Shown here one piece after another: positions 10,527 to 11,221 of a stretch of DNA of 36,673 nt; the first letter of the stretch is position 1, and each line of letters starts with the position of its first letter. The stretch is from Escherichia coli (lineage in GTDB: Bacteria; Pseudomonadota; Gammaproteobacteria; Enterobacterales; Enterobacteriaceae), in assembly GCF_003334315.1 (NCBI RefSeq), contig NZ_QOWR01000049.1; one strand, given 5' to 3'. Position numbers and translations under genes: made by a program. The notes under the pieces are model-generated. The model ran no database searches, had not been told where the DNA came from, and worked only from the letters and a program-made list of their open reading frames with translations.

Positions 10527-10799
10527 TCAACTGCGAATATCATCATACTCCCGCGTTTTATCAAATTCGTGTTTCGCAAATGGACATAATGGGATAATTT
10601 TTCGTTTTTCCCGACGCATTTTTTCCACGACTTTCGCAACCAGCTGTTTACCAATCCCTTGCCCTTTCAGGCTTTCATCGACATCGGTATGTTCGATAAT
10701 CGCTAAATTCTCTCCGGTCGGCACAAAGACAATTTCAGCGATTTGCTTGCCTTGTTCGTCATTAATGTAAAATTTATTGTGGCCTTCGCGTATTTCCAT
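10527..10799 (-). CDS. yjdJ: YjdJ, small GNAT-like (acetyltransferase-fold) protein
   Basis: 90 aa ORF with GNAT-like motif ([16 protein letters not shown]); recognised as YjdJ. Confidence 0.85.
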
Positions 10800-10810
10800 T
10801 TTACCCTCGC

Positions 10811-11041
10811 TTATTTATGACGGTATTTCAGCGCACCACTCGGGCACGTATCAATCACTTTAACCACAGTGGCAACGTCGACTTCATCCGGCATGATCCA
10901 CGGCTTACGTTTGAGATTAAATAACTTGCCGTTGCCACGTACGCAATTGCCAGAATGCTGACATATCGCAGTGTTGAAATAGACATCGATCTTTTCGCCG
11001 GTATAACAGCGATAACCCCCGTCAAGTAGCGCCTGATCCAT
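10811..11041 (-). CDS. yjdI: YjdI, small cysteine-rich (ferredoxin-like, DUF1271-type) protein
   Basis: 76 aa ORF with four Cys (C12, C27, C33, C66); 11 nt upstream of yjdJ, co-oriented. Confidence 0.85.
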
Positions 11042-11221
11042 GACCTTCCCTCTCTCATCAGTATGGTTTTCACTATAAGCATAGCCCCGGAATCTTCATA
11101 CAGCACTGGCAGTTTCCGTTGCCAGAGTCTCTTCCCCTATATAGCCAATCATTCTTACTCCCTTTGAATTACCCGCCTCATCAGAGATAATGCTTAAGAA
11201 ATTTGTCACACAAGGAAGCTG

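Follow-up and report, generated by a model that had tools for sequence, protein, structure and literature searches.

We analyzed a 36,673-nt stretch of Escherichia coli DNA (contig NZ_QOWR01000049.1 of assembly GCF_003334315.1; hereafter the 36.7-kb window) and focused on two small adjacent genes, yjdI and yjdJ. Our preferred reading, for which we estimate a probability of roughly 45%, is that yjdI and yjdJ form a self-contained two-gene operon encoding the two subunits of a single module, which is induced by general stress and performs redox-gated chemistry at Cys72 of YjdJ. Gene fusions and cross-phylum adjacency back the coupling of yjdI to yjdJ, which an earlier reading of the sequence (the original prediction) had described as a tight pair. 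The gene positions and sizes, the 11-nt spacing, and the 180-bp gap to dcuS given there all proved exact when checked against the sequence and its open reading frames (ORFs). The features of the unit are as follows:

10811..11041, minus strand: yjdI coding sequence, 76 aa, Fer4_19 mono-cluster ferredoxin-like protein (ORF and Pfam)
10527..10799, minus strand: yjdJ coding sequence, 90 aa, minimal GNAT of the Acetyltransf_CG family (ORF and Pfam)
10800..10810, minus strand: yjdI-yjdJ spacer, 11 nt from the yjdI stop to the yjdJ ATG (read from the sequence)
10813..10811, minus strand: yjdI stop codon TAA (read from the sequence)
10808..10804, minus strand: yjdJ Shine-Dalgarno sequence GAGGG, within the 11-nt spacer (read from the sequence)
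11048..11052, minus strand: yjdI Shine-Dalgarno sequence GAGGG, 6 nt 5' of the ATG (read from the sequence)
11085..11075, minus strand: putative sigma-S-type extended -10 element GCTATGCTTAT, matching KCTAYRCTTAA at 10 of 11 positions
11042..11221, 180 bp: divergent intergenic region common to yjdI and dcuS, ending before the dcuS ATG at 11222

Both are genuine genes and not chance ORFs, because their products match Pfam families over the full length of the models and have homologues across phyla, and because yjdJ is found, at a coverage of at least 80%, in 5350 of the 5426 complete genomes of E. coli. We predict that they are transcribed as a single operon: they lie on the same strand with an 11-nt gap, promoter and terminator scans detected no promoter- or terminator-like site in the spacer, and the two genes were co-induced in two array studies. 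No E. coli transcript mapping for the pair was found in the literature searched, and no Rfam family matched within 10200..11400.

Adjacency was sampled from both partners: from YjdI, by looking up the contigs of eight diverse stand-alone clusters by exact protein, and from YjdJ, by a genome scan that yielded 80 species-level loci. A PF14542 gene of 90 to 95 aa lay directly downstream, at -4 to +14 nt, in six of the eight YjdI clusters. At the YjdJ-type loci, a YjdI-like ORF immediately preceded the gene on its own strand in 58 cases, was fused to it in 4, and lay elsewhere within 2.5 kb in 6; this set of 80 included Enterobacterales, Listeria, Enterococcus, Vagococcus, Bacillus relatives, Paenibacillus, Cohnella, and Brevibacillus. 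Proteins with YjdI at the N terminus and YjdJ at the C terminus accounted for 7 of the 150 best representatives clustered at 50% identity, and a profile search from these 7 fusions retrieved about 50 natural fusion clusters in which both Pfam domains are present, among them clusters from Sporosarcina and Psychrobacillus. The shortest of the fusions are essentially linker-free. On these comparisons, the pair is an ancient functional unit.

Individual loci depart from the usual arrangement. In Kurthia, yjdJ precedes the YjdI-like ORF; in Staphylococcus simulans, the two are on opposite strands; and at three Bacillales loci the two domains are 200 to 260 nt apart. In Listeria fleischmannii, YjdI is 70 to 74% identical to its E. 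coli counterpart, and the adjacent YjdJ only ∼47% (2501-3049). A YjdI identity this high is not usual between phyla and points either to very strong constraint on the protein or to horizontal transfer.

YjdI belongs to the Fer4_19 family (PF06902, "divergent 4Fe-4S mono-cluster," also known as DUF1271), to which it matches with an i-Evalue of 5.4e-30, residues 13 to 76 aligning to positions 1 to 64 of the 64-position model. It fits the published family motif CxHx3Cx32CP, with C27-Q-H29-SGN-C33 followed by 32 residues and then C66-P67. Homologues were sought exhaustively among 1.8 billion cluster representatives, and 118 diverse representatives were aligned. In this alignment, as in a set of 40 stand-alone members, C27, H29, C33, and C66-P67 vary little or not at all, and the same holds among the 118 for Y13, F41, and P47-W48. 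A fused zf-CDGSH domain is carried by 34 of 58 long Fer4_19 representatives; YjdI itself consists of Fer4_19 only. No solved structure has detectable sequence similarity to YjdI. Structure prediction, proposed as a check in the original prediction, returned a confident ferredoxin fold: an AlphaFold2 model built on 40 homologues reached a mean predicted local distance difference test (pLDDT) score of 91.7. Its best Foldseek matches in the PDB were the single-cluster [3Fe-4S]/[4Fe-4S] ferredoxins 1VJW, 1FXR, and 1SIZ/2Z8Q, with a probability of 0.98 and TM-scores of 0.5 to 0.64, but weak E-values of 0.06 to 0.6.

The four cysteines counted in the original prediction (C12, C27, C33, and C66) are all present in YjdI, but the four-Cys metal site suggested by that count did not hold up: only C27, C33, and C66 are conserved, and C12 is replaced in relatives. 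Across the distant relatives in the 118-sequence alignment, position 12 is K, T, A, or E; Enterobacterales species have A, V, L, Q, R, or C there, and Firmicutes have mostly K, with R in some. We rejected C12 as a fourth metal ligand for this free variation within Enterobacterales; since the position is not conserved in the family, C12 is an Escherichia-level quirk. Residue 30, which corresponds to the fourth-ligand position of canonical CxxCxxC ferredoxins, is Ala, Ser, Val, or Ile in the family. Because this position is of the Ser/Ala type and lacks Cys, YjdI is predicted most likely to hold a three-Cys [3Fe-4S]-type cluster through C27, C33, and C66. The RefSeq name "4Fe-4S mono-cluster protein" is thus probably imprecise, and the likely cluster type is corrected to [3Fe-4S]-like both from that name and from a four-Cys site. 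One member of the family has been dissected biochemically, the C-terminal Fer4_19 domain of the class E flavodiiron protein (FDP_E) of Syntrophomonas wolfei, which was found by experiment to hold a [3Fe-4S]1+/0 cluster and in which mutation of the His had no effect (bioRxiv 2024.04.03.587993). The same preprint calls the UV-visible spectrum of E. coli YjdI similar, citing a PhD thesis (Bak, Boston University) in which YjdI is said to have been spectroscopically characterized.

Position 12 also bears on whether YjdI is the protein substrate of its neighbor, with YjdJ acetylating a residue of the ferredoxin and so modulating it. The tight adjacency of the two genes would suit such an arrangement, as would the coupled alignment, in which position 12 is K in 73% of sequences and R in 0%, and K76 is conserved at 89%. 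However, YjdI has no invariant lysine, position 12 is A, V, L, C, Q, or R in Enterobacterales and R in some Firmicutes, and an enzyme permanently fused to a stoichiometric substrate, as it would be in the ∼50 fusion clusters, is unusual for a regulatory modification. K12/C12 was rejected as a conserved acetyl acceptor on account of the same variability in Enterobacterales, and we consider it very unlikely that YjdI is a substrate.

YjdJ is of GNAT type, as originally proposed. It matches Pfam Acetyltransf_CG (PF14542) with an i-Evalue of 1.1e-24 (residues 9 to 88 on positions 1 to 80 of 80) and covers just the central and C-terminal part of Acetyltransf_1. PDB entry 5I0C, "uncharacterized protein YjdJ," is the E. 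coli protein with one residue differing: codon 15 (10755-10757) encodes Glu in the window, and the structure has Lys15. A relative from Staphylococcus aureus, PDB 1R57/2H5M, matched at 1.6e-19. Against NCBIfam, the proteins had nothing beyond sub-threshold matches to generic GNAT and radical-SAM-activase models, and the PHROG scan gave only weak generic acetyltransferase matches. YjdJ keeps the GQGIG coenzyme A (CoA)-pyrophosphate loop at G46 to G50, G46 being 98% conserved in 63 coupled or fused sequences. Cys72, the putative active-site cysteine in the motif PLCPFAK, is conserved in 100% of these 63 sequences and is also invariant among 19 stand-alone YjdJ-type proteins. From its family match, YjdJ appears to retain the acetyl-CoA-binding half of the GNAT fold and to lack the usual N-terminal half that binds the acceptor. 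The S. aureus homologue of YjdJ reportedly binds CoA, and eukaryotic NATD1 is a member of the same family. Acetyltransf_CG proteins have reportedly been proposed, in the Pfam description and by Cort et al. in 2008, to act on a macromolecular acceptor, which would also suit YjdI as the substrate; we know of no acceptor for any member.

Given these properties, the preferred reading can be put in mechanistic terms. We infer that YjdI and YjdJ associate physically, probably through an N-terminal helix and the residues G9-Y10 of YjdI. This element (LLxxGY) occurs in 41 of 43 GNAT-fused proteins, 3 of 5 GNAT-neighbored proteins, and none of 27 CDGSH-fused proteins, and on that distribution it speaks for the pair as one unit and is a candidate docking interface for YjdJ. 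Within the complex, YjdI would sense redox conditions or relay single electrons, as Fer4_19 does in its fusions with flavodiiron or CDGSH domains. Acyl/CoA-thiol chemistry at Cys72 of YjdJ would be gated by the redox state of the YjdI cluster or by its integrity; alternatively, the cluster might supply or accept electrons for that chemistry. An acetyl group would pass from acetyl-CoA to acetyl-S-Cys72 and on to an acceptor. In Enterobacterales, the cassette would carry its own sigma-S-type promoter and be turned on in stationary phase and after acid stress. A more far-reaching version, which we judge distinctly unlikely, is that the pair is the first example of a class of Fe-S-dependent acyl/CoA-thiol enzymes not yet described, which the general stress response would deploy through sigma-S in Proteobacteria and through sigma-B in Firmicutes. 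There, a [3Fe-4S] subunit would dock on a half-GNAT and either gate the Cys72 chemistry by redox or join in it directly, examples being acetyl-CoA-dependent modification of a macromolecule or the handling of CoA-thiols or persulfides.

The regulatory part of the preferred reading draws on the region upstream of yjdI. The putative element GCTATGCTTAT is compared with the sigma-S extended -10 consensus KCTAYRCTTAA, which includes a C at -13 (PMC5650638, PMC3367168). It has the -13 C at 11084 and the hexamer TATGCT at 11083..11078, and lies 44 nt 5' of the yjdI ATG. Transcription is predicted to start near 11071, which would give a 5' untranslated region of ∼30 nt. The shuffle P value for the match in the 100 nt upstream of yjdI was 0.003, and GCTATGCTTAT is one of only four matches of at least 10/11 on both strands of the window. 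The others are at 8129 (+), 33804 (+), and 32385 (-), the first of these (TCTACGCTAAA) lying just 5' of the lysU coding region. Citrobacter (10/11) and Pragia (11/11) have a sigma-S-type -10 motif with the same spacing, although their upstream genes differ. The motif is positionally conserved: of 36 Enterobacterales loci, 29 have a match of at least 9/11 between about -44 and -54, and none of 29 loci from outside Enterobacterales has one of at least 10/11. In Hafnia/Obesumbacterium, where the best sigma-S -10 upstream of yjdI scores 8/11, the gene immediately 5' of yjdI, on its strand, encodes a universal stress protein (Usp) (2421-2840), and the usp promoter may drive the pair there.

Published expression data point in the same direction. 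Both genes rose 2- to 3-fold at the transition to stationary phase on an O157:H7 array (PMC2241611). After an acid shift, both were likewise up at 5 and 10 min and hardly recovered; the list that reports this places them with genes of the rpoS regulon, beside rpoS, wrbA, poxB, otsB, talA, and elaB (PMC2270276). In spaceflight cultures, yjdI was upregulated together with yccJ, yegP, and yiaG (PMC5091764). In Listeria monocytogenes, the YjdI/YjdJ homologues lmo0133-lmo0134 form one sigma-B-dependent operon by transcriptome sequencing (PMC2813243), and lmo0134 is reduced in sigB mutants (PMC7690807). Because of the putative sigma-S-type promoter, the induction in stationary phase and by acid, and the sigma-B operon of Listeria, we assign the module to the general stress response and not to C4-dicarboxylate sensing or GhoST.

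The original prediction had found the position of the pair between ghoST and dcuSR suggestive, and this did not survive comparison across species. The window is chromosomal DNA, and its positions 10300-11400 are 100% identical to many complete E. coli genomes, in which the RefSeq gene order is lysU(lysS)-ghoT-ghoS-yjdJ-yjdI / dcuS-dcuR-dcuB-fumB. Among 40 Enterobacterales species loci, however, dcuS is near the pair in 5, and ghoS/ghoT in 1, E. coli itself. The pair is intact between unrelated flanks in Citrobacter, Hafnia/Obesumbacterium, Pragia, and L. fleischmannii. Since yjdI and yjdJ keep together while their flanks change across species, the dcuSR and ghoST neighbors appear to be incidental.

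These counts also largely refute any reading that ties the pair to its neighbors, whether as an accessory to DcuSR or as a toxin-antitoxin-like or defense module beside GhoST. Such a tie was prompted by the 180-bp divergent region common with dcuS and by the adjacent ghoST, and a small gene upstream of a GNAT gene superficially resembles GNAT-toxin/antitoxin pairs. In the modules TacAT, AtaRT, and KacAT, full-length GNAT toxins are paired with ribbon-helix-helix (RHH) DNA-binding antitoxins. In contrast, YjdI is a ferredoxin and not an RHH antitoxin, YjdJ has just 90 aa, and neither protein matched any PADLOC defense model. Moreover, in a lysine-acetyltransferase overexpression screen, four GNATs stopped growth, and YjdJ was not among them. 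We give a tie to the neighbors almost no credence.

One further feature of the divergent region belongs to dcuS:

11164..11191, plus strand: sigma-70-like site TTGAAT-16-GATAAT on the dcuS side (promoter scan), not part of the yjdIJ unit

Located 31 nt 5' of the dcuS ATG, it is a plausible dcuS promoter and stands back to back with the putative yjdI -10 element, ∼80 bp away. A sigma-54 paper that names yjdI was set aside as irrelevant: the gene figures there only as a far downstream one, 7.7 kb from an intragenic melB site.

In ∼10% of E. coli genomes, the locus is split by an island of ∼15 kb, absent from the window, at a site corresponding to window positions ∼10300-10800. An intact yjdI-yjdJ pair remains on the dcuS side of the island, and its ghoS side carries a second copy of yjdJ and a 3' fragment of yjdI (E. 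coli M21816, 20001-35985). With copies of yjdJ on both flanks, the direct repeat therefore consists of yjdJ and part of yjdI. The island contains two SPATE-type autotransporters, an AraC regulator, and a fimbrial operon, and it matches the published espC/tagBC island (PMC6592367, PMC5538559).

Several observations weigh against the preferred reading of a single stress-induced redox module. The first group concerns the coupling. No YjdI was found near the YjdJ-type gene in 12 of the 80 species-level loci, and the S. aureus homologue of YjdJ is encoded alone; therefore, the GNAT can function on its own. The LLxxGY element could mark a clade rather than an interface. An AlphaFold2 model of the concatenated E. 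coli pair, computed from a paired alignment of 63 fusions and neighbor pairs, had a pLDDT of 92.3 but a predicted TM-score (pTM) of only 0.64, and so predicts no confident fixed interface. The 12 loci lacking YjdI, together with the two of eight YjdI clusters that have no GNAT neighbor, would also suit the explanation that the functions of the two genes are unrelated and that only shared transcription or chance has placed them side by side. However, repeated natural fusions whose N-to-C order is the same as the gene order, and an adjacency kept across Proteobacteria and Firmicutes in different contexts, make this explanation extremely improbable.

The second group of adverse observations concerns activity and regulation. 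In the lysine-acetyltransferase overexpression screen, YjdJ gave no acetyl-lysine band, although it was expressed there without YjdI and only lysine acceptors were detected. The negative fits a need for YjdI, a non-lysine acceptor, or an absence of catalysis; under the two-subunit reading, the missing partner is a possible reason why YjdJ tested alone gave no signal. No rpoS-mutant data on either gene were found in the literature searched by gene name and b-number. The putative dependence on sigma-S draws on the motif and on expression patterns. In addition, a terminator scan found no convincing intrinsic terminator 3' of yjdJ (fold z = -1.4). RpoS regulon studies are said to list yjdI and yjdJ, which the literature searched did not confirm.

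The lack of lysine acetyltransferase activity on overexpression of YjdJ would also be expected if YjdJ is not an enzyme but an acetyl-CoA/CoA-sensing subunit that tunes electron transfer by YjdI, the ferredoxin being the effector. The size of YjdJ (90 aa, without the acceptor-binding half of a GNAT) and the use of Fer4_19 elsewhere as an electron-transfer module on redox enzymes are consistent with such a sensor. However, Cys72 is invariant (63/63) and lies in the most conserved motif of the protein, PLCPFAK, a pattern more usual for a catalytic residue than for a ligand sensor, and no redox enzyme partner is conserved beside the pair. We regard a sensing role as possible but unlikely, and retain redox-gated chemistry at Cys72 as the preferred reading.

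The description of yjdI and yjdJ as poorly characterized, with no established function, stands in that no published cellular function for either protein was found in the literature searched. It is slightly too broad in that a YjdJ structure (5I0C), the acetylation screen, and some spectroscopy on YjdI exist. Both genes were already annotated, and both the Fer4_19-CDGSH association and the Listeria operon had been published. The extent of the coupling between Fer4_19 and the mini-GNAT and the sigma-S-type promoter that travels with the pair are not discussed in the literature searched and extend known facts. The pair is not a new kind of system, and nothing here overturns existing knowledge. 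Nevertheless, two orphans of the E. coli "y-ome" become one testable two-subunit module that E. coli shares with Listeria, Enterococcus, and Bacillus relatives and that is induced by general stress in both lineages, and a misleading association with DcuSR and GhoST is removed.

Among known systems, the Fer4_19 domains of FDP_E and of type 7 CDGSH proteins share with YjdI the Pfam family, the CxHx3Cx32CP motif, and the single-cluster ferredoxin fold; AlphaFold models superpose at 1.5 Å over 72 residues (bioRxiv 2024.04.03.587993). In those proteins, however, Fer4_19 is fused to a redox partner (a flavodiiron core or a CDGSH [2Fe-2S] domain), whereas YjdI is free-standing with a mini-GNAT partner, and the CDGSH-fused members lack the N-terminal helix/G-Y extension of YjdI. 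The Fer4_19-CDGSH (CDGSH plus DUF1271) architecture has been described as type 7 CISDs (PMC3174974, PMC5859297), a class to which YjdI does not belong, as no CDGSH motif is present in the 76-aa Fer4_19-only protein. The single-cluster ferredoxins of Thermotoga maritima (1VJW), D. africanus (FdI, 1FXR), and P. furiosus (1SIZ) have the fold and the C-x5-C...CP spacing in common with YjdI, at a sequence identity of only 12 to 23%. YjdI differs from them in having no middle-ligand Cys or Asp, a conserved His at C+2, and the additional invariant residues Y13, F41, and P47-W48, and, unlike them, it has no known redox partner.

GNAT-toxin/RHH-antitoxin modules resemble yjdI-yjdJ in that a small upstream gene tightly precedes a GNAT gene; the E. 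coli pair differs in its half-size GNAT, its Fe-S-type partner, and its lack of overexpression toxicity and of a PADLOC match. The Acetyltransf_CG protein of S. aureus, of the SACOL2532 type (1R57/2H5M), is like YjdJ in its length of ∼90 aa, its conserved Cys, and its Gly loop. It is encoded alone, whereas its counterparts in E. coli, Listeria, and Bacillales come with a ferredoxin-like protein, either coupled or fused. L. monocytogenes lmo0133-lmo0134 has the YjdI and YjdJ homologues in the gene order of E. coli, in one operon, and under a general-stress sigma factor; it differs in using a sigma-B rather than a sigma-S promoter and in its genomic neighbors, as seen in L. fleischmannii.

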